DNA of 64,000 nucleotides, from assembly GCA_965249205.1 (NCBI GenBank), contig CBDFLL010000002.1, positions 170,810-234,809 of the forward strand, written 5' to 3'. Numbering within the stretch: the first letter of the stretch is position 1; every line of letters begins with the position of its first letter. The position numbers and the translations under genes are program-made. Below are positions 13,358 through 42,558 of the stretch, piece by piece. The stretch is from Vicinamibacterales bacterium (lineage in GTDB: Bacteria > Acidobacteriota > Vicinamibacteria > Vicinamibacterales > UBA2999). The notes below the pieces were generated by a model. That model searched no databases and was not told the DNA's origin. It saw only the letters and a program-made list of their open reading frames with translations.

Positions 13358-14401
13358 CGTGCTTATCCGGTTGTTTCAGCAAGCCACCACCGGTAGTGTA
13401 TCGGCGTGGCGCGCCCGTCGTTTCCGAAGAATCTCCGGGAGTTTCAGCGGCAATTTGCGACCGCCGAGGCCTGTCAGGACTACTTGGCGGCGTGCCGCTG
13501 GCCGGACGGCTTTGTGTGTCCCCGGTGCCGGCACGCGCGCGGCTATCGCCTGACCACACACCGGCGCTGGCAATGTGCGGCGTGCCGGTATCAGGTGTCG
13601 CTGACCGCCGGGACGATTCTCCACAACACGAAGACGCCGCTCCTGGTGTGGTTCTGGGCGGCCTATTTGACGGTTACCGACAAGCGGGGCCTCTCGGCGC
13701 TCCTGCTGCAGCGGCAGTTGGGCCTGCGGCGGTACGAAACGGCGTGGCTGCTGTTGCACAAGCTGCGGCGCGCGATGGTGAACGCGGGGCGGGAGCCCTT
13801 GTACGGCGACGTGGAGATCGATGACACCTGGGTGGGCGCGCCCCAGGCCGGCCTGCGCGGCAGTCGCCAACTCAAGGGGCGGAAAGCCGCGCTGGTGCTG
13901 GTGGCGGTGGAACGACGCGGGGATCGGTCGGGTCGGGTCCGCATGTCCGTGATCCCGAACTTCAAACAATCGACGATGCTCGCGTTCGTCACTCACCACA
14001 TTGCGCCGGGGGCGACGGTCTACACCGACGGGCTGAAAAGTTTCGATGGGCTCCAGGCCGCTGACGTGAGACACGTCGCCCGCCCGCAACCGATCCGGAG
14101 CGCCCTGCACAGGGGGGTGCCCTCCGTCGTGCCTTTGGCCGACCGCGTCATCGGCAATTGCCAACAGTGGTTGATTGGCACGCACCACGGCGTCAGCAAG
14201 GCGCAACTACAGGTCTACCTCGATGAGTTCGTGTTTCGGCACAATCGGCGGCGGCACCCGATGGCCGCCTTTCAGACCCTGCTGGGCCTGGGGACCGGAC
14301 GGACGCCCACGCCCGCCCGACGGATTCGCGGCGCGCAGGACGTGCGCCCCCCAGGCTGATCGCAAGATATAGGGGTTAGCTGAAACAACCGGATAAGCAC
14401 G
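13358..14401 (+). mobile_element. IS1595-family insertion sequence, copy 1 (1044 bp)
   Basis: 23-bp perfect terminal inverted repeats: CGTGCTTATCCGGTTGTTTCAGC ... GCTGAAACAACCGGATAAGCACG. Perfect 8-bp target duplication ACCCGTCT (13350-13357 and 14402-14409). Confidence 0.9.
13406..14359 (+). CDS. IS1595-family transposase
   Basis: 317 aa. N-terminal zinc ribbon (CPRCRH...WQCAACRYQ) and an IS1595-type DDE domain. Confidence 0.85.
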   Translation: MARPSFPKNLREFQRQFATAEACQDYLAACRWPDGFVCPRCRHARGYRLTTHRRWQCAACRYQVSLTAGTILHNTKTPLLVWFWAAYLTVTDKRGLSALLLQRQLGLRRYETAWLLLHKLRRAMVNAGREPLYGDVEIDDTWVGAPQAGLRGSRQLKGRKAALVLVAVERRGDRSGRVRMSVIPNFKQSTMLAFVTHHIAPGATVYTDGLKSFDGLQAADVRHVARPQPIRSALHRGVPSVVPLADRVIGNCQQWLIGTHHGVSKAQLQVYLDEFVFRHNRRRHPMAAFQTLLGLGTGRTPTPARRIRGAQDVRPPG

Positions 14402-15474
14402 ACCCGTCTTGACCCAGATGTTCCGGACGAACGCGCCCTCCTTGTCGAACACCTGAACGCGCAGCCCCTCGCGGTCACAGACGTACACGAGGCCTGCGTC
14501 GCTGATCGCAACACAGTGCAGGGAATAGGTGAAGGCGCCGCCAGTGCCGGCGTGAGTCTCGTCGAGCGTCGCCTGGCGGCCCCACTGACGCAGGAAATGG
14601 CCGTCCTTGTCGAAGACGGCGATGCGTTTGTTGCCGTAGCCGTCCGCGATGTAGGCATCGCCGTTGTCGGGATCGACTGCCACGCCAGCTGGGAAGAAGA
14701 ACCGGTCGTGGCCGGCATTCAACGGTTCGCGGTTGATGGAGTTGTCGGCCGCCCGAATCGCCGTGCCGTCGGACGTGTCGACGACGCCCTTGGTACCGAT
14801 CTGAAAGAGCAGCTCGCCCTCGTGCGTGTACTTCTGGGCAATGCCGTCGTTGTTGCCCACGACCCAGATGTTGTCGTCGGAGTCGAACGCGCAACCGTGG
14901 ATGCTGTCCGGTACGCGGGAGGCGTCGCCCCACGAGTTGACGAGGTTCCCGGCCGTGTCGAACAGCAGAATCGACGCAGCCGGCCTCGAGGTCTCGGCCT
15001 CCTCGTCGGTGATGTTCTGCCGGTCGAGAACCGCGATGTGGTCGTGCGAGTCGATGCACGGGTGTCCAAGCGTCGCGTTGATCCATCCGGTCGGCAGGGG
15101 ACCAGGCCAGGAGGGATCGACGTCGAATCGTGGTCCTTCCTGTGCGGCCAGCGGAAGTAGCAGTATCCAGCAAAGCGTCAATGAGGCGGCGCATGAGGCG
15201 GCAAGGGTCCGGTGCATGGTCGGTGTCCTCATGTGATTCGGCGACCGTCAATCGCAAGCCGCGAAGTCTGGCCGGTCGTTCGCGCCAAGCCTATCCCAGC
15301 CGAGCTCTCCTGCCGATCCGAATGCTCAACGGGGGTAGTGAGCCCCTCTTGATCCGAAAGTAGCCCACTACCCTCAGTGGAAGCCCATGCGCCTCGCCAG
15401 CGCGGGCGCCCTGTGGGCTAGCAGCCCCTCAAGATCTGCGTGACGCATCCGGGTGGGTCGCGTAAACTCGCCCC

Positions 15475-16600: not shown

Positions 16601-16972
16601 ATGGCAGCAGACACCCCGCGCCACGACGACCTGCACGACCTCGTGGCCACCGCTCACCGGGATCGCGACCGGCGCGCCCGCAGCTATCGAGCCCGCGCGC
16701 TGCAGTTGTTTCCGCCTGTCTGCGGCGTGTGCGGCCGCGACTTCGCCGGGGCAAAGCTTCGCGAGCTCACCGTGCACCACAAGGATCACAACCACGACAA
16801 CAACCCACCGGACGGCAGCAATTGGGAGTTGCTCTGCGTCTACTGCCACGACAATGAGCACGGTCGAAAGGACGTCGCCGACGCGTATACAGGTTCGTCT
16901 GACGCGGACGCTCCGGCGCCGTCCACCTACCAGCCATTCGCCGGTCTCGACAAGCTGTTAAAGAAACCGTAG
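16601..16972 (+). CDS. yajD: YajD-family HNH nuclease-like protein
   Basis: LRELTVHHKDHNHDNNPPDGSNWELLCVYCHDNEH closely parallels E. coli YajD (LRELTVHHIDHDHTNNPEDGSNWELLCLYCHDHEH). Confidence 0.8.
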   Translation: MAADTPRHDDLHDLVATAHRDRDRRARSYRARALQLFPPVCGVCGRDFAGAKLRELTVHHKDHNHDNNPPDGSNWELLCVYCHDNEHGRKDVADAYTGSSDADAPAPSTYQPFAGLDKLLKKP

Positions 16973-16979
16973 TCAGGAC

Positions 16980-17237
16980 CCGGTTTCATAGCCTCCAGCC
17001 AGGTCCCGTCCGCGGACAGCCCCATTCGTGGCCAGATGTGTCACCGGCCATGAGCCGCGGCACCTCCTCTGCAAACCGGCTCCGCTCGCATCACAGACGG
17101 ATCCAGGAGGGAACATCTTGCCTCGCGTCGCGGCTGGCGCCAGCCCTACGGTTTGCGCCGGAGGTGCCGCGCCTCACAGCCGGTGGTAATCACTAAGCGG
17201 TGACTCGCGGCCACCCGCAACGAGATTATGAATCCGG
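16980..17237 (+). repeat. MITE-like repeat unit, left copy (~258 bp)
   Basis: The 183-nt core 17011-17193 equals the reverse complement of 20549-20731 with 5 mismatches (hand alignment). The unit has its own terminal inverted repeats: 16980-16995 against 17222-17237, 13/16. Confidence 0.8.
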
Positions 17238-20200
17238 CTACGCCTTAGGCCGCGGCCAATGGCGTGCCGCGGCTTCGGCGTCTTCCAGTTCTTCCTTGCG
17301 TCGCCAGTAGCCATGTTTCTTGATCAGCCGACGGGCTTCGGTCAGGTCATCGCGCGGACCGCGCGCGTGGCCGTTTGGATCTGCTGGACCGGCCACAGCA
17401 CTCAGATCGGTCGCCCACGGATACGGCGTGACGGCATGGAAGAGCCTCGCGCGGTAGAGATGGATGTCGGCGAGGAAGAGGGGCATGGGGCCGCGCTCGG
17501 CGATCTCCCAAGCCTCGTCCAGGTCATTCATCGTGCTCGCCTCACCCGCCACCGCCTGCGCCTCTTGGTTGAGAAGTCTCTGCCGTGTGGCTATCGCACA
17601 GGAGCACCAGGCGCGGGTGAAGAGGCCGCGGGGAAGCTCGTCGCTCTGTCCCGCGCGGCGGAGACCGTCCACGGCGGCGATAACCTCAGTCGCCGCGGAC
17701 GTGAGCCCAACTTGATCGTCCGCGGACTCGAGTATCAACCTGTAGAGCTTGGCGCGGCCCAGGGTCAGGTGGTCGAGAGCGATGCTGAGAAGCGCGTCGC
17801 TAGGAACTCGCCATTCGAACATCTTCGCACCGCGCGCGGCGACGGCGCGACAGGAGGCCACGCTCGTCGCCGCCGCCGACCGACTGTCAGCATCCGCCGC
17901 CTCTCGTCGGCTGCCCCCAAGCAGCATGTGCCACGCGCCACGCGCCGCCTCCATCAAGAGCAGCTCGCAATATCGGAAGCCCTGCACCGAATACAGCAAC
18001 GGGTATTGAGGCTGATTCTGGGCCTGCATTTTCTCGGCCTCGCGGAAGAGCGCTTCCGCCTCGGCCCGGCGGCCCGCATGGTGCAGGGCATCGGCATGGG
18101 TCGTGCGCTTGCCCATCCGCTGAAACGCATCGCCCGTGCGATCGGCGTAGGTAACGGACTGCTCGGCGTCCTCCACCGCCCCGGCCACGTCGCCCAGCGT
18201 CAGCTCCAGTTCGCTAAGGTTGCTGGCGCTGATGGCAGCGTTTGTCCAATCCTCCTGCTTGTCCATCAAGACAACCGTTGTCCGCATCGGTTCGACGGCC
18301 TCGGTTAACCGACCCAAGCCGCGCAGAAGCACGGCGGTTGTACCCAACAGGACCCCTTGGTCATTCTCTTTGAGTGAAGGCGAGACGCGGCTCCACGGGG
18401 TCTCGAAGAAGGAGGCGACGGCCCCAAGTTCGGAACCTAAGGCGCCGAGCTTCCTGGCGCTGTAGTAATTGTTCTGTTTGCGAATGCGTTCGAACCACAC
18501 CTTGTCATGCGCCTCCTGCTGCATCCCTGCTTGGCAGCCGTGGGCGACGGCCTGGTAGAGCGGTTGGAGGTCTTTGAGTGTGGGCTCGTCGCCTTCATTT
18601 GTGGTCGCGCAGAGGTGTTCGTAGAGCCGCCGGTGCGCGGCACGCCAGGCTTCGGGTTGCTCCTTCAGGACACGCCGGGCGAAGTATTCCCGAATGAGCG
18701 GATGCGAATCGAGCGCGACGAGGCTCTTGGCCGCATCACGGTTCACGGTGAGCAGCTTCGCCTCCTCGAGCCGGGTGAGCGCGATGTTCAACTGGCTTGG
18801 CGCAATCGACTTCTTTGCTACCGTGAAGAGCGCCTCGGTCAGACCTGGGATGACGGGGCCTGTCCACAGCGCCTCCAGGCAGTCGGCGGTGGCCGGGCGG
18901 TCGAACAGGCCGAGCAACCGCAGCAGAGCGACCGCGCGCCGGCCCTTCTGATTCTCTTCCCCGGTTTTCCCTCCGGTCTCGAGTGACTGCACATACGCAT
19001 CCATGACATGGAAGGCATGGCCGCCCTGCTCCTCCGCATCCGCCTCGTCGAGCTTCACGAGGTCGCGCCGACGAATGTCTCCGGCGTGGGCGTCGCGGAG
19101 GAACGTGCCGATCAGGTTGAGCGTCAGCGCGTGGCCCTTCACATCTGCGACGAGTGCCTCGAACTCCCTTTGACGCCCAACTACGCCGAGCGTCCTGAGT
19201 AGCGCCACGCCGGCTTCCGGCAACAACCGCAGGAGTACCTCCTCTGGCGCTGTCGTCTGCCAGTAGGCGCGCAAGTCCGGGATGGAATATCGCGTGGTGA
19301 CGACGCAGAGGCCGTTGCTGGTAGCGGCCAGCCCTTTGAGCACAGCGGCAAGGCCCTGGTCCTTCAGTTCGCCCGGCGTGGGAGAGGTGGGCGCGTATTG
19401 CAGCGGCTCCAGGCCATCCAAGATGAGCAGTGCCCGCCGTTCGCCGGCGAGCTGGGCGAGCCGCCGGCCCTTGTCGAACGCGCCAGCGCTACCCTCCGCC
19501 ATCTCCGCGTCGCCGAAGAACGTGAGCGCCTTGAGAAACAGGTCGGACGACACCGCCATCTGCTCCCGCGTGCCCTGGCTGTAGAAGGACCACGCAAACA
19601 CCGCATCGCACCCCGGCCAGTCCTGATGCGCCAGCTCCGCCGCCCACTTCGCCACGAGCGACGTTTTTCCCTCGCCCCCGAGTGCGACGAAGGTGAGAAT
19701 GTGCGGTCGCTTCGTCTCGCCGCGCACCGCCTTGTCCCAGGCGTTGGCAAGGAGCTTGGTCTCGGTCTCGCGACCGATAAGTTCCGATGGTGCGTATTTG
19801 ATGATGCGTAAGATATCGACCTTCGCCGTCTGAGTGGCGGATGTTTCGCCGAAGGTAAGCGCGGTCCCTTTTCGACGATGTCTGGGCTTGAGCGCGCCGA
19901 CCGGAAGCGGCTCCACACCTGCCCGCTCCAGCAACAAATCGTAAAGGCGCTGGTAGTTACTCTCAGAGGTCAGGGAGTAGTGGCTGACCGAACGCATCGG
20001 CTCTGGGATCCAATCCTCAGTGGCGGCAGACAAGAACACCGGCACAAACTTCAGCGTATTACTGCGACTGCCGTAGATTTCTTGGGTGATGAGGGCACCC
20101 TCCCAATCGACGCCCTTGCCCTTACCGAGTTTTTCATGCCCGCGGAATCGGCGGTAGTAGGTTTCGGTGCAGACGACAAGAACGGAGCCCGCGGCATCGA

Positions 20201-20369
20201 GTTGATCGAGCATCCAGCGCGGCCAGCCCTGCTGGGGTGCGCCGTTCACGTACTGGTCAAGGAGAGTCTCGATGCCGTCCTGGCGCAGCCGTTCGGAGAG
20301 CGCAAGCACTTGTTTACTATGCTCGACGGAATCGTGGCTGTAGCTGATGAAGACCGTGTTCTGTTTCAT
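17238..20369 (-). CDS. SEFIR/TIR - NB-ARC (STAND ATPase) - TPR protein, NLR-like
   Basis: 1043 aa. N-terminus: TVFISYSHDS...VLVVCTETYY...KFVPVFL. NB-ARC motifs in order: Walker A GGEGKTS (231-237), Walker B LLILDGLE (314-321), TTR (358-360) and GHALTL (412-417). The C-terminal ~500 aa are helical repeats. Confidence 0.8.
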   Translation of the reverse strand: MKQNTVFISYSHDSVEHSKQVLALSERLRQDGIETLLDQYVNGAPQQGWPRWMLDQLDAAGSVLVVCTETYYRRFRGHEKLGKGKGVDWEGALITQEIYGSRSNTLKFVPVFLSAATEDWIPEPMRSVSHYSLTSESNYQRLYDLLLERAGVEPLPVGALKPRHRRKGTALTFGETSATQTAKVDILRIIKYAPSELIGRETETKLLANAWDKAVRGETKRPHILTFVALGGEGKTSLVAKWAAELAHQDWPGCDAVFAWSFYSQGTREQMAVSSDLFLKALTFFGDAEMAEGSAGAFDKGRRLAQLAGERRALLILDGLEPLQYAPTSPTPGELKDQGLAAVLKGLAATSNGLCVVTTRYSIPDLRAYWQTTAPEEVLLRLLPEAGVALLRTLGVVGRQREFEALVADVKGHALTLNLIGTFLRDAHAGDIRRRDLVKLDEADAEEQGGHAFHVMDAYVQSLETGGKTGEENQKGRRAVALLRLLGLFDRPATADCLEALWTGPVIPGLTEALFTVAKKSIAPSQLNIALTRLEEAKLLTVNRDAAKSLVALDSHPLIREYFARRVLKEQPEAWRAAHRRLYEHLCATTNEGDEPTLKDLQPLYQAVAHGCQAGMQQEAHDKVWFERIRKQNNYYSARKLGALGSELGAVASFFETPWSRVSPSLKENDQGVLLGTTAVLLRGLGRLTEAVEPMRTTVVLMDKQEDWTNAAISASNLSELELTLGDVAGAVEDAEQSVTYADRTGDAFQRMGKRTTHADALHHAGRRAEAEALFREAEKMQAQNQPQYPLLYSVQGFRYCELLLMEAARGAWHMLLGGSRREAADADSRSAAATSVASCRAVAARGAKMFEWRVPSDALLSIALDHLTLGRAKLYRLILESADDQVGLTSAATEVIAAVDGLRRAGQSDELPRGLFTRAWCSCAIATRQRLLNQEAQAVAGEASTMNDLDEAWEIAERGPMPLFLADIHLYRARLFHAVTPYPWATDLSAVAGPADPNGHARGPRDDLTEARRLIKKHGYWRRKEELEDAEAAARHWPRPKA

Positions 20370-20509
20370 GACTGCTGCAGTAATCCGGTCACTATAGCCG
20401 AGCTACTGAATCGTCTGGAATCAGCGCAGCGAATACTGATCTGCCTCCCCTGCTCTTGCGTGAGTTGATGAGGCGAAGCGGGTGGCGCTTGGCGCCAAGG
20501 AGACCCTTC

Positions 20510-20772
20510 TTCATAACCTCGTCGCGATTGGCCGCGATTCACCGCCTGGTGATCACCACCGGCTGTGAGGCGCGGCACCTCCGGCGCAAACCGCAGGGCT
20601 GGCGCCAGCCGCGACGCGAGGCAAGATGTTCCCTCCTGGATCCGTCTGTGATGCGAGCGGAGCCGGTTTGCAGAGGAGATGCCGCGCCTCATGGCCGGTG
20701 ACACATCTGGGCACGAATGGGGCTGTCCGCGGTCTTCCGCGGACAGGACCCGCCTGGAGGTTATGAATCCGG
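20510..20772 (-). repeat. MITE-like repeat unit, right copy (inverted relative to the left copy)
   Basis: Perfect 11-bp terminal inverted repeats TTCATAACCTC (20510-20520) and GAGGTTATGAA (20757-20767). The core 20549-20731 is ~97% identical to the left copy. Confidence 0.8.
20723..20746 (-). terminator. hairpin just downstream of the purK stop (candidate terminator, no U-tract)
   Basis: Perfect 10-bp stem CTGTCCGCGG / CCGCGGACAG with a 4-nt loop, 28 nt from the purK stop. It lies inside the right repeat unit. Confidence 0.4.
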
Positions 20773-20773
20773 T

Positions 20774-21907
20774 TTAGATCAGCAGCGCGTCGCGCGCACC
20801 GACGACGAGGTCCTGCGCCTCGTTGACTGTCGCGCCGACCGCTGTCAGATGCCCCATCTTCCGCCCCGGTCGGGGGTTGGTCTTGCCGTAAAGGTGCAGC
20901 TTGACGTCGGCGAACCGGAAGGCAGCCGCCCAGTTCGGCTCGCCGTCCACCCAGAGGTCGCCAAGCAGGTTCGCCATCGCGGCCGGGCGCGGGATCTCCG
21001 CCGACCCAAGCGGGAGACTACACACGGCGCGCACCTGCTGCTCGAACTGGCTGGTCACGGCAGCGTCGATCGTGAGGTGGCCGGAGTTATGGGGCCGCGG
21101 GGCCAGCTCGTTGACCAGCAGGTCGCCATCGGTGCTGACGAAGAACTCGACACACAGCACACCGACGTACTGCAGCTCTTCGAGAATCGTCCGCGTGATG
21201 TCGTTCGCCTGTGTCACCACGGCCGGTGGGATCGCGGCCGGCACAGTCGTGACATCGAGGATGTGATCGCGATGGCGGTTCTCGAATGGTAAGTACATGG
21301 CGATCTCGCCGTCGCCGCCCCGGGCGGCGATGATCGAGATCTCTGCCTGCAGGCTGATGAACTTTTCCACGACCGCCGCCTGGTGACCGATGGCGGTCCA
21401 GATAGGTTCTACGTCGGCCGGCGTCGCGACCTTGTGCTGCCCCTTGCCATCGTACCCAAAGGCGGCGGTCTTGATGACGGCGGGCGTTCCGACGCGGGCC
21501 ACCGCGTCCCATAACTCGTCAAAACTCTCGGCGGACGCAAACGGTACCGTCGGCACTCCGCGGTCCGCGAGAAACGTCTTCTCGCGGGCACGCTGCTGAG
21601 CGATGTGCAGCGCGACGCCAGACGGGCAGACCGGCACGAGTGCCTCCACGGCGTCGATCGCCTCGGTCGGGATGTTCTCGAACTCGAACGTGACCACGTC
21701 CACGCCGCGCGCGAACGTGCGCACCGCATCGAGGTCAGCATACGGTGCGCTCACCTCCAGGTCGGCGATCTGTCCTGCAGGTGAGTCGTCTTCGGGAGAA
21801 AACGTGTGGACGCGGTAGCCCATTCGCCTGGCGGCCATCGCGAACATGCGCCCAAGCTGGCCGCCCCCGAGCAGGCCCAGGGCCGCGCCCGGCGCCACGC
21901 GCGTCAC
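20774..21907 (-). CDS. purK: 5-(carboxyamino)imidazole ribonucleotide synthase
   Basis: ATP-grasp sequence [24 protein letters not shown]. The GTG at 21907 overlaps the purE stop (GTGA). The 493-aa track ORF carries an Arg-rich shadow extension across purE. Confidence 0.9.
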
Positions 21908-22389
21908 GGCAGCGGTACCTGCCGTACTTTCTCGGTCTGCTGGTCGCGAAAGGCGCGGAGCTTCGCCCTCAGATCCGGGCGTGAGTTGGACAGAATGGAG
22001 ACGGCAAGGAGCCCCGCGTTGGTCGAGCCTGGCTTGCCAATGGCCAACGCGCCCACTGGGATGCCGCCCGGCATCTGGGCAATCGAGAGCAGGGAGTCGA
22101 GACCCTTGAGCGCCGCGCTCTCGACAGGCACGCCGAGGACCGGCACGACAGTCAATGCGGCGACCATACCGGGCAGGTGCGCCGCGCCGCCGGCGCCGGC
22201 GATGATGACCTCGACGCCGCTGGCTTCGGCGCCCGTTGCAAACTCGGCCATCCACGCCGGTGTCCGGTGAGCCGATACGATATGGCGCTCGTAGGGCACC
22301 TCAAAGCGGTCGAGCACGTCGACCGCATGTTTCATCGTCTCCCAGTCGGATAACGACCCCATGACGACGGCGACGAGCGGCTCTGCCAT
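21904..22389 (-). CDS. purE: 5-(carboxyamino)imidazole ribonucleotide mutase
   Basis: 161 aa. [17 protein letters not shown]...SAHRTP...[14 protein letters not shown] are the classic PurE motifs. Confidence 0.95.
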
Positions 22390-25573: not shown

Positions 25574-27420
25574 GACCCGGGCTGGAGCCACCGGTCGCGC
25601 TGCTGCTGCTGCGCGTCGGCGTTGGCCGGATCGACCTCGAGCTGCCACTCCTGCGGCGGCTCGGCGCCCAGGACCGCGTCGATCGTCCGCAATGCATCGC
25701 GTCGCGCCACGAGCAACGCCACGGCGGCGCCCGGCCGATACTGACCAAGCCTCGCGGCCAACTGGTCGGCGCGCACCCGGAAACCGTTCATCGCCAGGAT
25801 TTCGTCGTCCACGTTGAGACCGGCCTCAAATGCCGGCGTCCCGCGACGCACCTGGGTCACGACCAGCCGGCCATCGACGTTTCGCGTCGACATGCCAAGC
25901 CATGCGGGCCGAGGCCGATCGTCACGCGGCTCGTCGACGGGTCGGAACCGCAATCCGAACGCCTCGAGCGCCTCGCCGTACTCCAGTTCGGCAGTGCCCT
26001 CGATCGCGCCGTCCCAGAACAACGCGAGGCTCAGACCGCTCACCTGCTCCACCACGGCGCGGAACTCATCTGGCGTGAACCCGCGATCGCCGGAAAACCG
26101 CTCGAACGCCGTACGCATCACGTCGTCCAGGCTCCTGGCGCCTGATGTCGCCGCGCGGATCCGGCCATCCAGGAGGAATCCCAGCACGGCGCCCTTTGTG
26201 TAGTAGCTGACCGACGCGTTGACGCTGTGCTCGTCTTGGCGGTAGTAATTGATCCACGCGTCGAAGGAGGCCTCCTCCACCGACTGCACGAGCCGCCCCG
26301 GTGTCGTTTGCAGCCCCCTGATGCGGCTCGACAGCGCGTCGAGCAGCTCCGCGCGCGTCGACAGGCCGGCCCGATGGAGGGCCAACTCTCCGTAGTAGTC
26401 AGTCAACCCCTCGACCATCCAGAGGCTGCGCGTATGGACCTCGTCCTCGTAGTTGAACGGGCCCAGTTCGACCGGACGCAGTCGCTTGATGTTCCAGGCG
26501 TGGAAGAGCTCGTGACTCGCCAAGCCCAGCCAGGCGAGATACGCCCTTCTCGTGCCGGTGGCCCAGCGATTGGACATCAGCATCGTGGAGTTCTTGTGCT
26601 CCAGCCCGCCGCCACCACTCGTGGCCAAGGTCAGCATGTTGAGGAACACGAACTTGTCGTACGGCAAGGCGCCCCACATACGGCGATGCTCCCGGACGAC
26701 GAGCTCTAGATCTCTCGCCGCGCGAGCCCCGTCGAACACGCCGTCTTCGCCGACGTTCGCCAGGACATGTCTCTTGTCATCAACGGTGAACTCGTAGACG
26801 GCCGGATTGCCGATCACGATGGGCGAATCGACCAACGTGTCGAAATCAGGTGCCTGGTACCGATGGCTGCCCCCAGGGATCTCGGCCAGGCCGGTCACCG
26901 AGGCCTGCCAGCCTGGCGCCGGCTGAATGACCACCTCGTGCGGACGCCCCAGCCCATCCACCAGCGTCATGAACGTCGGGGCGCCATTCAACATCGCGAA
27001 GTCGGCTTCGACCCAATTGGTGCGCACGCTCATCTCGCGCGCGTATACGCGATAGCGCACCTCGACGGATGGCGCACCGCCAGTGGCAACCCGCCAGCGG
27101 TTCTTGTCGGACTTGGCGACCGCAAGCGCGCGCCCATCGACGCCGCTGGCGGTCACGGCCTCAACCTGCCGCGCGTACTCCCTCACCAGGTACGAACCCG
27201 GTGTCCAAACAGCCATCATCAGCTCTACCTCCGACCGCCCATCGGTCGGCACCACGACGCTCACCTCGACGTAGTGCGTCTGCGGCTCGGGAAAGCTGAC
27301 GGTGTAGCGAATGGGATCGGATCCGGGATCGGGCGCGGTCTCCGCGGAGGCAGAAAGAGGACTATGCATCATGAAAACAACCAGCAAGAGCGCGGGGATT
27401 CTTGCGACCATGGGATGCAT
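25570..27420 (-). CDS. M61 family metallopeptidase with C-terminal PDZ domain
   Basis: HELFHAWN zinc motif. The start is taken at MHPMVARIPALLLVVF (signal peptide); the track start at 27459 is an upstream GTG. Confidence 0.85.
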   Translation of the reverse strand: MHPMVARIPALLLVVFMMHSPLSASAETAPDPGSDPIRYTVSFPEPQTHYVEVSVVVPTDGRSEVELMMAVWTPGSYLVREYARQVEAVTASGVDGRALAVAKSDKNRWRVATGGAPSVEVRYRVYAREMSVRTNWVEADFAMLNGAPTFMTLVDGLGRPHEVVIQPAPGWQASVTGLAEIPGGSHRYQAPDFDTLVDSPIVIGNPAVYEFTVDDKRHVLANVGEDGVFDGARAARDLELVVREHRRMWGALPYDKFVFLNMLTLATSGGGGLEHKNSTMLMSNRWATGTRRAYLAWLGLASHELFHAWNIKRLRPVELGPFNYEDEVHTRSLWMVEGLTDYYGELALHRAGLSTRAELLDALSSRIRGLQTTPGRLVQSVEEASFDAWINYYRQDEHSVNASVSYYTKGAVLGFLLDGRIRAATSGARSLDDVMRTAFERFSGDRGFTPDEFRAVVEQVSGLSLALFWDGAIEGTAELEYGEALEAFGLRFRPVDEPRDDRPRPAWLGMSTRNVDGRLVVTQVRRGTPAFEAGLNVDDEILAMNGFRVRADQLAARLGQYRPGAAVALLVARRDALRTIDAVLGAEPPQEWQLEVDPANADAQQQQRDRWLQPGS

Positions 27421-27525
27421 TCTATAGAAACCGGCCGCGAAGGTGCTCGGCCCGGGCACAGCGGGCAGCGATTGATCGGGGTCGTCGGTACTGGTCGATT
27501 GCCTCTCTGGGCAGAGGGGCGTCAG
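27396..27525 (-). repeat. ~130-bp direct repeat, copy A (M61 5' region plus a relic TPR-gene 3' end)
   Basis: Two well-conserved blocks against 29366-29496: 42 bp at 37/42 and 33 bp at 29/33. The middle of the repeat is only weakly conserved. Confidence 0.75.
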
Positions 27526-29365: not shown

Positions 29366-29496
29366 GGATTCTTGCGATCATGGGGCGCATTCTATGGAAC
29401 CCGGCCGAAAATAATGCCCGTCCGGAGGAGCGCGTGCAGCGGTTTATCGGTTCCCTCGATATTGGTCGATCGCCTGCCTGAGCAGAGGGGCGTCAG
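29366..29496 (-). repeat. ~130-bp direct repeat, copy B (3' end of the TPR gene plus downstream)
   Basis: See copy A. It covers the last codons ...DAPLLRQAIDQYRGNR* of the TPR gene and the following 78 nt. Confidence 0.75.
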
Positions 29497-41466: not shown

Positions 41467-42510
41467 CGTGCTTATCCGGTTGTTTCAGCAAGCCACCACC
41501 GGTAGTGTATCGGCGTGGCGCGCCCGTCGTTTCCGAAGAATCTCCGGGAGTTTCAGCGGCAATTTGCGACCGCCGAGGCCTGTCAGGACTACTTGGCGGC
41601 GTGCCGCTGGCCGGACGGCTTTGTGTGTCCCCGGTGCCGGCACGCGCGCGGCTATCGCCTGACCACACACCGGCGCTGGCAATGTGCGGCGTGCCGGTAT
41701 CAGGTGTCGCTGACCGCCGGGACGATTCTCCACAACACGAAGTCGCCGCTCCTGGTGTGGTTCTGGGCGGCCTATTTGACGGTTACCGACAAGCGGGGCC
41801 TCTCGGCGCTCCTGCTGCAGCGGCAGTTGGGCCTGCGGCGGTACGAAACGGCGTGGCTGCTGTTGCACAAGCTGCGGCGCGCGATGGTGAACGCGGGGCG
41901 GGAGCCCTTGTACGGCGACGTGGAGATCGATGACACCTGGGTGGGCGCGCCCCAGGCCGGCCTGCGCGGCAGTCGCCAACTCAAGGGGCGGAAAGCCGCG
42001 CTGGTGCTGGTGGCGGTGGAACGACGCGGGGATCGGTCGGGTCGGGTCCGCATGTCCGTGATCCCGAACTTCAAACAATCGACGATGCTCGCGTTCGTCA
42101 CTCACCACATTGCGCCGGGGGCGACGGTCTACACCGACGGGCTGAAAAGTTTCGATGGGCTCCAGGCCGCTGACGTGAGACACGTCGCCCGCCCGCAACC
42201 GATCCGGAGCGCCCTGCACAGGGGGGTGCCCTCCGTCGTGCCTTTGGCCGACCGCGTCATCGGCAATTGCCAACAGTGGTTGATTGGCACGCACCACGGC
42301 GTCAGCAAGGCGCAACTACAGGTCTACCTCGATGAGTTCGTGTTTCGGCACAATCGGCGGCGGCACCCGATGGCCGCCTTTCAGACCCTGCTGGGCCTGG
42401 GGACCGGACGGACGCCCACGCCCGCCCGACGGATTCGCGGCGTGCAGGACGTGCGCCCCCCAGGCTGATCGCAAGATATAGGGGTTAGCTGAAACAACCG
42501 GATAAGCACG
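41467..42510 (+). mobile_element. IS1595-family insertion sequence, copy 2 (1044 bp)
   Basis: Same ends as copy 1. I found only 2 substitutions against copy 1: A13634/T41743 and C14334/T42443. The flanking 8-mers match only 6/8 (AGGCGACC left, AGGCGAGG right). Confidence 0.9.
41515..42468 (+). CDS. IS1595-family transposase
   Basis: 317 aa, differing from copy 1 at 2 residues (T->S, A->V). Confidence 0.85.
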   Translation: MARPSFPKNLREFQRQFATAEACQDYLAACRWPDGFVCPRCRHARGYRLTTHRRWQCAACRYQVSLTAGTILHNTKSPLLVWFWAAYLTVTDKRGLSALLLQRQLGLRRYETAWLLLHKLRRAMVNAGREPLYGDVEIDDTWVGAPQAGLRGSRQLKGRKAALVLVAVERRGDRSGRVRMSVIPNFKQSTMLAFVTHHIAPGATVYTDGLKSFDGLQAADVRHVARPQPIRSALHRGVPSVVPLADRVIGNCQQWLIGTHHGVSKAQLQVYLDEFVFRHNRRRHPMAAFQTLLGLGTGRTPTPARRIRGVQDVRPPG

Positions 42511-42558
42511 AGGCGAGGAGTGCGACCGTGAAGTCGAGCGTGTGTTGTGAAGAGGGCG

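Follow-up and report, generated by a model that had tools for sequence, protein, structure and literature searches.

In the 64-kb window analyzed here, which is the whole stretch of acidobacterial DNA under study, the gap between the convergent genes yajD and purK holds a single gene lying between two inverted copies of a ~260-bp repeat. This raises the question of whether the 3.8-kb block is, as originally predicted, cargo delimited by its repeats that can move or invert as a unit, or whether the repeat has a different history and role. The answer that we favor, and to which we give an even chance of being correct, is that the gap is an accessory-gene hotspot in which two inverted copies of a rare MITE-like foldback element, both of them old and diverged from each other, enclose a bSEFIR-STAND-TPR gene, with vertical inheritance of the arrangement and selection on the core of the element.

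The repeat pair and the gene between its copies

A script recount confirmed that positions 17011-17193 are the reverse complement of 20549-20731 over 183 nt, with 5 mismatches (17031, 17055, 17063, 17148, and 17188) and no indels. An inverted-repeat search extended the match to arms of 223 nt (17010-17232 and 20510-20732; 95% complementary), across which copies A and B differ by 12 mismatches, and to outer arms of 37 nt (16980-17016 and 20736-20772; 86%) that are shifted by a 10-nt indel. A stretch of 10 nt (CCGCGGAAGA) that the other copies retain has been deleted from copy A. The full extent of both copies (Table 1) and their predicted boundaries were also upheld: the left copy begins at 16980, following a yajD stop that ends at 16972; the right copy ends at 20772, next to the purK stop codon at 20774-20776; and the stop codon of the cargo gene (17238-17240) abuts the inner end of the left copy at 17237. 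Both copies have one orientation relative to the outside gene, and each lies directly 3' of the stop codon of that gene, at a distance of 1 to 8 nt.

Table 1. Coordinates of the features at the yajD-purK locus, as positions in the window
Feature	Position	Strand	Description
yajD, YajD-family HNH nuclease	16601..16972	+	Left core flank; Pfam HNH 3.3e-12; NCBIfam NF008448 YajD equivalog 5.6e-44
Repeat copy A (yajD side), 258 bp	16980..17237	+	Foldback, outer end to inner end; nhmmer profile 1.2e-87
Conserved core of copy A	17042..17185	.	Imperfect 37-nt stem around 70-nt center
Cargo gene, 1043 aa	17238..20369	-	N-terminal bSEFIR/TIR-like domain, STAND (NACHT/AAA_16-like) NTPase, C-terminal TPR sensor
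Hypervariable cargo part	17780..18680	-	C-terminal sensor region; by identity to L004
Unique 140-nt spacer, copy B to cargo start codon	20370..20509	-	Presumed cargo promoter and 5' UTR
Repeat copy B (purK side), 263 bp	20510..20772	-	Inverted relative to copy A; nhmmer 2.1e-93
purK	20774..21892	-	Right core flank; Pfam ATP-grasp, PurK_C, preATP-grasp; start codon approximate

The repeat is genuine, and chance is excluded as its source. Independent metagenome contigs from ENA, at least five in number, carry the repeat-cargo-repeat structure, and an assembly artifact is therefore ruled out. All other long inverted repeats in the 64-kb window are IS ends, and the block shows no compositional anomaly (GC contents of 65.9% for the repeat, 63.9% for the cargo, and 64.7% for the window). 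A larger duplicated unit was not detected; the inner flanks of copies A and B share no homology past the repeat, with a score below the shuffled mean, and the 140-nt spacer shows no homology to the inner flank of copy A or to the upstream region of the homolog at locus L008.

Each copy is a foldback by itself, with terminal inverted repeats CCGGTTTCATAGCCTC ... GAGATTATGAATCCGG. By manual count, CCGGTTTCATAGCCTC agrees with the reverse complement of the inner end, CCGGATTCATAATCTC, at 13 of 16 positions, and the inner terminal repeat of copy B is eroded, reading GAAGAAGG where GAATCCGG is expected. The internal stem of copy A pairs 37 nt (17042-17078 with 17149-17185), and in an alignment of five distinct copies the core is the least variable segment. 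The copies (258 to 269 bp) are non-coding and contain only short arginine-rich ORFs, which are not kept as ORFs: the TTG start is gone in the copy at L012, and the yajD-side copy of the sister strain L004 is split at its center by a 108-nt nested insertion. A 23-codon micro-ORF behind an AGGAGG motif at the element center was rejected on the same two grounds, having lost its start in L012 and being split in L004.

The cargo protein matches Pfam SEFIR (1.1e-15), TIR_2 (4.1e-9), AAA_16, NACHT, and TPR_12, and over residues 5-138 SEFIR (58.6 bits) scores above TIR_2 (37.4 bits). The PADLOC bSEFIR model also matches (4.1e-42, 143 bits), over residues 1-171 only. The protein has more than 4000 homologs. 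By analogy with defense proteins of the bSEFIR and STAND types, it would sense phage through its TPR part, oligomerize through its NTPase, and fire its SEFIR effector. The sensor part differs by 25 to 40% between strains that share 97% identity in the flanks; to L004, of the same species, the hypervariable stretch has 57 to 81% nucleotide identity, compared with ~97% in the flanks.

Turnover of the purK-yajD gap and divergence of the copies

yajD is syntenic across all related loci, and PurK has 97% amino acid identity to P0123 and 83 to 93% to other Acidobacteria. The cargo gene lies downstream of purK on the same strand. In the same species from other samples (L003 to L007), the arrangement and orientation are identical, with flanks ~97% identical. 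In related Acidobacteria the gap is empty (93 nt in L014 and 153 nt in L016 and L017), filled by giant HYR surface proteins (L012/13, L015, and L018 to L024), or occupied by an IS630-like insertion (L011). The gap shows six content states among lineages that are 3.5 to 13% diverged in icd, purE, and purK, and sister lineages in a tree can differ in content, as do L014 (empty) and L015 (filled) at 5% divergence and L012 and L019 at 9%. That the gap is empty, HYR-filled, or furnished with a single repeat copy in related species marks it as a turnover hotspot for accessory genes. The original prediction that the 3.8-kb block is accessory cargo is thus borne out, as orthologous gaps are empty or otherwise filled, and so is its observation that the block contains neither a transposase nor a recombinase. 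It had also named an outcome that would count against it, namely, a repeat restricted to this locus and vertically conserved with no empty sites among relatives. The first part of this description essentially applies, in that the repeat is locus-bound and vertical within the species; the second does not, since sister species have empty sites.

Locus L012 carries a solo repeat copy beside a ~40-nt (35- to 45-nt) relic of the 3' end of the SEFIR gene. The relic reads RDWPPSKT* and directly adjoins the solo copy, and the gene in L004 ends in RDWPRPKA*; by blastn the match is short (35 nt at 83%, E value of 0.001). The cargo stop thus abuts the element in two non-sister lineages.

Orthologous copies are 95 to 96% identical, paralogous copies are 91 to 93% identical, and the L012 copy is 87 to 89% identical to all four. 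Orthologs are thus closer than paralogs; the copies show no concerted evolution, and recombination between them is therefore rare. Between strains the repeat is 93 to 96% identical, and the neighboring 140-nt spacer, which is 84 to 85% identical to that of L004, thus diverges faster than the repeat. In the comparison with L012, the repeat retains its 87 to 89% identity, compared with 60 to 71% at four-fold sites. Overall, the repeat core diverges ~3-fold more slowly than the adjacent non-coding spacer and the four-fold sites, although this high conservation could instead stem from recent horizontal spread. The copy tree is unrootable, and copies A and B may have arrived either together or in succession.

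Alternative explanations for the repeat

The position and conservation of the copies invite a reading that we consider unlikely, namely, that they are selectively kept structured elements (RNA 3'-end or insulator hairpins or protein-binding DNA) whose MITE-like look is incidental and which were duplicated as the defense gene needs insulation from purEK read-through and convergent yajD transcription. Their like-facing placement just past the stop codons and the slow divergence of the core agree with this, as does the strong fold of copy A as RNA (-125.4 kcal/mol with a z score of -4.0 for the plus strand; -143.4 kcal/mol with a z score of -4.2 for the minus strand). The main stem in L012 also shows one clean compensatory change from G-C to C-G. 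However, covariation is statistically empty over the five sequences, with 2 of 90 pairs compensatory and an unfavorable covariation term, which is too sparse to back an RNA structure. The wobble pairs of the main stem (a single G-U when read on one strand, two when read on the opposite strand, the minus strand folding slightly better) favor neither strand as the RNA strand. Scanning for promoter and terminator consensus sequences gave no relevant match, neither a terminator-like U-tract nor a sigma-70 consensus. Rfam 15 holds no family for the repeat and, at the gathering score, identifies only two tRNAs in the window; at E values up to 10, the copies yield weak generic hairpin-type matches only, such as miRNA precursors. 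Moreover, most related species lack the element, and their purK and yajD manage without it, and the split copy of the sister strain has not been lost.

We regard it as distinctly unlikely that two non-autonomous MITE copies, mobilized in trans by a transposase encoded elsewhere, inserted the SEFIR-STAND cargo into the gap as one unit. One cargo gene does lie between two full-length copies with terminal inverted repeats, which together with it take up exactly the space of the gap, empty sites are known, and the cargo stop adjoins the element in both of the non-sister lineages. MITE pairs acting like composite transposons in Acinetobacter provide a precedent (PMC6382973). One further copy, with a different flank, was inferred from the spurious ORF P0243, for which a look-up gave no contig; exact look-ups of proteins encoded in the window likewise gave no record. 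Nevertheless, no target-site duplication flanks copy A, copy B, or the whole block: copy A lies between GTCAGGAC and CTACGCC and copy B between CTAAA and GTCTCC, with no direct repeat, although the age of the insertion could have erased a duplication. In the alignment of copies, conservation is lowest at the termini, the opposite of what is expected for an active MITE. The repeat is also absent at the SEFIR-STAND homologs nearest to the cargo at other loci (L008 to L010 and L025; 68 to 70% amino acid identity). The DNA homology of the cargo to L008 and L009 (77%) is confined to the coding sequence and so gives no information on boundaries.

Searches for further copies bear on the same reading. 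An nhmmer profile run on the window and 25 loci found copies only at the purK-yajD locus, and ~350 kb of partly overlapping related sequence contained no repeat outside it; a block at one locus only is what flank-mediated exchange predicts, not transposition. Two core 20-mers were searched in the GTDB representative set of 185,579 genomes. The first, ATCCAGGAGGGAACATCTTG, had no match; as it varies in the sister strain, a second scan used CTCGCATCACAGACGGATCC, a 20-mer that does not vary among the copies, and this too had no match. A scan of the JGI metagenomes with one 20-mer, ATCCAGGAGGGAACATCTTG, gave two matches, both to an unrelated low-GC toxin-antitoxin locus, which we attribute to chance. 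A 24-mer of the repeat had no match in IMG/VR, and BLAST searches with the repeat gave no match in plasmids or phages. Two other small repeat families of the host genome turned up dispersed in the same sample. From these sequence searches, the copy number of the element looks very low, P0243 being the sole sign of a copy elsewhere.

A parent element with matching ends was not found among the insertion sequences at hand. The only IS in the window, of the IS1595 family (13358-14403 and 41467-42512), has ends (CGTGCTTATCCGGTTGTTTCAGC) that differ from those of the repeat and was rejected as its parent, and the IS630-like insertion in L011, which starts ACCCCAGAGATC beside purK, has ends unlike those of the repeat. 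Since the known copies are those at the purK-yajD locus and P0243, membership of the element among MITEs is unproven. A low-copy MITE-like element pair around hotspot cargo is real, and its movement as a unit is unproven. The suggestion that the block is a repeat-delimited mobile unit is not supported: no duplication is visible, homologous cargo elsewhere lacks the repeat, and the unit is found only between purK and yajD.

It is very doubtful, in our judgment, that the foldback represents a novel structured module, kept by selection, that accompanies single-gene STAND defense cassettes as they move and does real work. One possibility would be a recombination handle by which cassettes enter core-gene hotspots without a transposase or integrase; another would be that the inverted copies pair the ends of the defense transcript or of the convergent purK and yajD transcripts in a ~260-bp duplex, gating expression of a toxic effector. 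Three results are compatible with this reading: the core diverges slowly, the cargo stop abuts the element in the two non-sister lineages, and the P0243 copy is differently flanked. The block alone reveals no new mobility or defense mechanism.

Finally, it is extremely improbable that recombination of the 260-bp inverted repeats flips the intervening 3.3-kb segment as an invertible switch, because, although long inverted repeats of ~93% identity are adequate substrates for homologous recombination and the cargo would retain its own upstream spacer either way round, the window and five displayed contigs of other samples have a single orientation and none of the variants foreseen, no recombinase gene was found in or beside the block, and the independent divergence of the copies argues against frequent exchange.

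Proposed history and comparison with known systems

We return to our preferred reading, of a hotspot whose cargo lies between old copies of a foldback element. The SEFIR gene and the element would already have been linked when the gene arrived in the hotspot, because its stop codon abuts the inner end of the element in both lineages. The second copy would predate the split of the two strains, and the block would now be vertically inherited. Gain, loss, and overwriting would result from illegitimate deletions and from homologous recombination within the flanking purK and yajD sequences, and the pair would not have transposed. The element core is probably under purifying selection. The likeliest reason for this selection is that the long hairpin would serve as a 3'-end insulator or terminator for the purK and yajD transcripts on the two sides of a potentially toxic defense gene, a role suggested by position and conservation.

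If this is true, the locus provides a clean natural example, in a poorly studied phylum, of a defense gene lodged and overwritten in an integrase-free core-gene hotspot, along with a foldback element not catalogued before, whose evolution is slower than that of the neighboring non-coding DNA. It would also offer a small testable system for whether the hairpins are insulators of a toxic defense gene or leftovers of a delivery vehicle, and for where in the gene diversifying pressure acts.

Defense or integration hotspots flanked by core genes have been described for E. coli and Pseudomonas, and the occupants of most hotspots described are islands or satellites that carry an integrase. The purK-yajD gap resembles them in its fixed core flanks, content that varies among close relatives, empty sites, and defense gene. 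Unlike most of them, it lacks an integrase, and what occupies it most often is not a defense gene but a giant HYR surface protein. Repeats of the REP, BIME, and ERIC families number tens to hundreds per genome. The repeat shares with them its non-coding, hairpin-forming nature and its position just past stop codons between convergent genes, but it is present in two copies in 64 kb, at one locus. In Acinetobacter, a 439-bp MITE pair surrounds class 1 integrons and MITE-297 surrounds a mer region (PMC6382973), and here, too, two short non-coding copies with terminal inverted repeats bracket transposase-free cargo. The Acinetobacter MITEs are near-identical and occur at several locations and on plasmids, in units that carry target-site duplications (PMC6382973), whereas the copies described here are ~7% diverged, show no visible duplication, occupy one chromosomal locus, and have termini less conserved than the core. 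The bSEFIR anti-phage system was demonstrated experimentally in Bacillus, with a homolog from Bacillus sp. NIO-1130 (Millman et al., bioRxiv 10.1101/2022.05.11.491447). The cargo gene resembles this single-gene system in standing alone, in its N-terminal SEFIR domain scoring above TIR, and in its PADLOC match. Unlike the part covered by the bSEFIR model, however, the rest of the protein consists of a STAND NTPase and TPRs, like Avs/NLR-type sensors.

The repeat pair and its cargo

The inverted repeat that the original prediction placed around the STAND gene is real, and its coordinates proved accurate by inverted-repeat search and direct count. Copy A starts 8 nt past the yajD stop, copy B ends 1 base short of the purK stop codon, and the stop of the minus-strand 1043-aa gene (17238-17240) abuts the inner end of copy A, all as described. 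Segments 17011-17193 and 20549-20731 differ by the 5 mismatches and 0 indels first counted; direct count over the full 223-nt arms gave 12 mismatches. One copy starts immediately 3' of each of the purK and yajD stop codons, both are oriented alike relative to the outside gene, and comparison of the inner flanks shows that homology ends at 17237 and 20510. A search of the whole window found no further long inverted repeats besides IS ends.

Each copy (258 or 263 bp) is a foldback by itself, with terminal inverted repeats (outer, CCGGTTTCATAGCCTC; inner, GAGATTATGAATCCGG) and an internal stem. The predicted fold energy is -125.4 kcal/mol on the plus strand and -143.4 on the minus strand (z about -4 for both against shuffled controls). 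The ORFs inside the copies are short, arginine rich, and unpreserved from copy to copy. No Rfam family matched the copies at the gathering score, with weak generic hairpin-type matches only at E values up to 10. GC content does not stand out (repeat, 65.9%; cargo, 63.9%; window, 64.7%).

On its domain content, the cargo is best described as a bSEFIR-type STAND protein, with Pfam matches to SEFIR (1.1e-15), TIR_2 (4.1e-9), AAA_16, NACHT, and TPR_12 and a PADLOC bSEFIR match over residues 1-171 (4e-42). A protein homology search returned more than 4000 homologues, among them Acidobacteria and Gallionella proteins. Defence islands are enriched in bSEFIR proteins, and a Bacillus member confers protection from phage phi29 (bioRxiv 10.1101/2022.05.11.491447). 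The upstream purK shares the strand of the cargo, and domain matches identify the yajD product as a YajD-family HNH nuclease. As originally stated, no transposase or recombinase lies inside the block, according to a domain search that included overlapping ORFs.

Features of the block, of the purK-yajD gap, and of related loci (L003-L025, loci compared with the window; L004, same-species sister strain)
Feature	Locus	Position	Description
Block	Window	16980-20772	Copy A, cargo, spacer, copy B
Copy A	Window	16980-17237	yajD side
Cargo ORF	Window	17238-20369	Minus strand; N-terminal SEFIR/TIR-like domain, STAND NTPase signature, C-terminal TPR repeats
Spacer	Window	20370-20509	Upstream of cargo
Copy B	Window	20510-20772	purK side, inverted relative to A
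Arms	Window	17010-17232 / 20510-20732	223 nt, 95% complementary (inverted-repeat search)
Outer arms	Window	16980-17016 / 20736-20772	37 nt, 86%, shifted by 10-nt indel (inverted-repeat search, alignment)
Internal stem	Window	17042-17078 / 17149-17185	37 nt, imperfect, around 70-nt centre
Cargo sensor part	Window	17780-18680	C-terminal
purE patch	Window	22200-22330	
IS1595-family IS	Window	13358-14403; 41467-42512	1046 bp, 3 bases different
130-nt direct repeats	Window	27396-27525 / 29366-29496	77% identical, intergenic, about 2 kb apart
Extra purE-purK stretch	L004	8211-8480	About 255-270 nt; missing in window at about 21896
Recurring parts of that stretch	L015; L014; L008	2536-2642, 5827-5910; 2647-2746; 13851-13938	Intergenic
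108-nt element	L004	13235-13341	Also in L003, L005-L007
Relatives of 108-nt element	Window; L004	27634-27779; 2329-2473, 19097-19141	
Tandem duplication	L003	13716-14230	About 515 nt
Solo repeat copy	L012	16710-16955	Downstream of yajD
Start of empty-site spacer	L016	9138-9160	Past purK stop
Nearest outside-species SEFIR-STAND homologues	L008, L009/L010; L025	10001-13090; 1622-4612	
Gap state: empty	L014		93 nt
Gap state: empty	L016/L017		153 nt; NCBI GCA_027622905.1
Gap state: giant protein	L015		2477 aa
Gap state: HYR-domain protein	L018-L024		845 aa; longer versions on other group contigs
Gap state: two proteins, then one repeat copy	L012/L013		341 aa, and 2096 aa (HYR); IS630-like insertion in L011
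Gap state: SEFIR block	This species		

Variation and turnover at the purK-yajD gap

The names of purK matches mark the organism as an Acidobacterium. The closest SEFIR-STAND protein, P0002 (80% amino acid identity to the cargo product), is on record in six ENA contigs, and five of these places from different samples (L003-L007) were compared. Their gene order (icd, purE, purK, cargo, yajD, metallo-beta-lactamase-fold gene) is uniform and as in the window, with both repeat copies at unchanged positions and orientation. Between the window and L004, identity is about 97% in flanking DNA, 93-96% in the repeats, and merely 84-85% in the 140-nt spacer. The cargo sensor part has 57-81% DNA identity to the same-species allele. 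Such a steep local rise in diversity is characteristic of immune sensors under diversifying selection or undergoing allele exchange.

Several smaller differences were also observed. A patch of purE (82-90% identity to the sister strain amid a 97-100% background) looks like a small recombination tract. The extra stretch between purE and purK in L004 is another dispersed intergenic repeat family. The 108-nt element, whose ends are short and inverted (GCGCTTTTC), splits the yajD-side repeat copy of the sister strain exactly at its centre and is a member of one of the genome's dispersed small-repeat families. On one low-coverage (4x) L003 contig, a tandem duplication covers half the repeat, the 108-nt insert, and the yajD 3' end, with a truncated yajD call, and reflects either genuine rearrangement at the foldback or faulty assembly.

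Orthologous loci located via purK homologues showed six states of the gap, including, as anticipated, empty sites in related lineages. These lineages lie 3.5-13% apart in an icd, purE, and purK tree, in which the sister lineages L014 (empty) and L015 (filled) are 5% divergent and L012 and L019, with unlike gap contents, 9%. Comparison of these loci indicates that the gap is a hotspot. The empty-site spacer of L016 begins CCGGTTCAGCG, similar to the repeat terminus CCGGTTTCATAG, which could be chance or an old footprint; a profile search of that spacer found no more repeat similarity.

The single repeat copy of L012, a related lineage, occupies the orthologous position and is 87-89% identical to the window copies. 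Immediately inside it, about 35-45 nt show homology to the 3' end of the SEFIR-STAND coding sequence (blastn, 35 nt, 83%, E 0.001), and the encoded C-termini read RDWPPSKT* (L012), RHWPRPKA* (window), and RDWPRPKA* (L004). Since repeat-less homologues at other loci end KHWPGSPK*, the HWP motif belongs to the gene itself. The L012 lineage therefore appears to have formerly had a SEFIR gene fused likewise to the element. This is good but, because the relic is short, not conclusive evidence that the solo copy is a relic of a SEFIR block mostly replaced later by HYR cargo.

Age and constraint of the copies

Identity is 95-96% for orthologous copies of the window and L004 and 91-93% for paralogous ones, and the L012 copy matches each of the four at 87-89%. 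The second copy was therefore already in place when the two strains diverged, and the lack of homogenisation between the copies speaks against their often recombining or mediating inversion. From strain to strain, the adjacent spacer diverges about three times as fast as the repeat. Comparison of the window with L012 gives identities of 60-71% at four-fold degenerate sites in purK, purE, and icd, 80% at third positions of the yajD 3' end, and more than 90% in the repeat core as judged by eye on alignments. These values suggest either purifying selection on the repeat core or exchange of the locus more recently than the genome average. Elsewhere in the window, the 130-nt direct repeats are a possible common regulatory or leader element; their first 42-44 nt are conserved at matching places in several relatives of other species.

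It is unlikely that the repeat is a purpose-built regulatory or insulator element. Such a function would suit a conserved, strongly folding core; in an alignment of the five copies, 2 of 90 predicted pairs showed a compensatory change, and the covariation term was unfavourable, too sparse a signal to speak for or against an RNA structure.

Origin of the block

Our preferred reading, to which we give about an even chance, is that this is hotspot cargo between two old copies of a rare, MITE-like foldback. The cargo and at least one element copy would have come in already joined, and the block would now be inherited vertically. Its gain, loss, and overwriting would proceed through illegitimate deletions and through recombination within the flanking purK and yajD regions. 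The hairpin core would probably be kept as a transcript-end or insulator structure flanking a defence gene that may be toxic.

A true MITE-pair composite transposon, moving as the repeat-delimited unit first proposed, is improbable. It would account for the empty sites, for a cargo-element junction common to two non-sister lineages, and for a further repeat copy. An exhaustive phmmer search with the spurious ORF through copy B had a sole match, P0243 (116 aa; encoded on an NCBI/ENA contig of 267,302 bp), whose residues 1-64 are repeat (88% identity) and whose tail is unlike any flank compared; therefore, at least one additional copy lies in a different context. Against such a transposon, the target-site duplications expected of it were absent at both copies and at the whole block. 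SEFIR-STAND homologues (68-70% identity) occur at other loci without the repeat, between an RND pump and ParE/Phd in L008-L010 and among toxin-antitoxin genes in L025. As to copy number, P0243 aside, a five-copy nhmmer profile matched nothing else in the window and 25 loci, a sample in which two other small repeat families of the genome came up as dispersed. Two invariant-core 20-mers were absent from 185,579 GTDB representative genomes, and plasmids, phages, and IMG/VR held no match. In copy alignments the element is conserved least at its termini, unlike an active MITE. The ends of the sole nearby IS, of the IS1595 family, differ from the repeat ends, which rules it out as the parent. Because a target-site duplication and a parent IS are both missing, we call the element MITE-like rather than a MITE.

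The toxin-antitoxin neighbours of these homologues are ParE/PhdYeFM, PemK, and BrnT, and in L009/L010 a frameshift or premature stop divides the gene into a SEFIR fragment of 46 aa and a 965-aa remainder. The IS1595-family element encodes a Zn-ribbon and ISXO2-like DDE transposase; its copy at 13358-14403 is bounded by an 8-bp target duplication (ACCCGTCT) and was inserted recently, since L004 lacks the IS at that site.

That the segment is invertible by recombination, as also first suggested, is very improbable given its single orientation across the window and L003-L007 and its unhomogenised copies.

Nothing in the preferred reading of a foldback-bracketed hotspot cargo is categorically new, and the element family is uncatalogued. 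Core-gene-flanked defence hotspots are described in enterobacteria and Pseudomonas, and this locus resembles them but lacks an integrase. Among known systems, the nearest parallel is with the MITE pairs around integrons and mer regions in Acinetobacter, which, unlike the pair described here, have near-identical copies, duplications, and several locations (PMC6382973).
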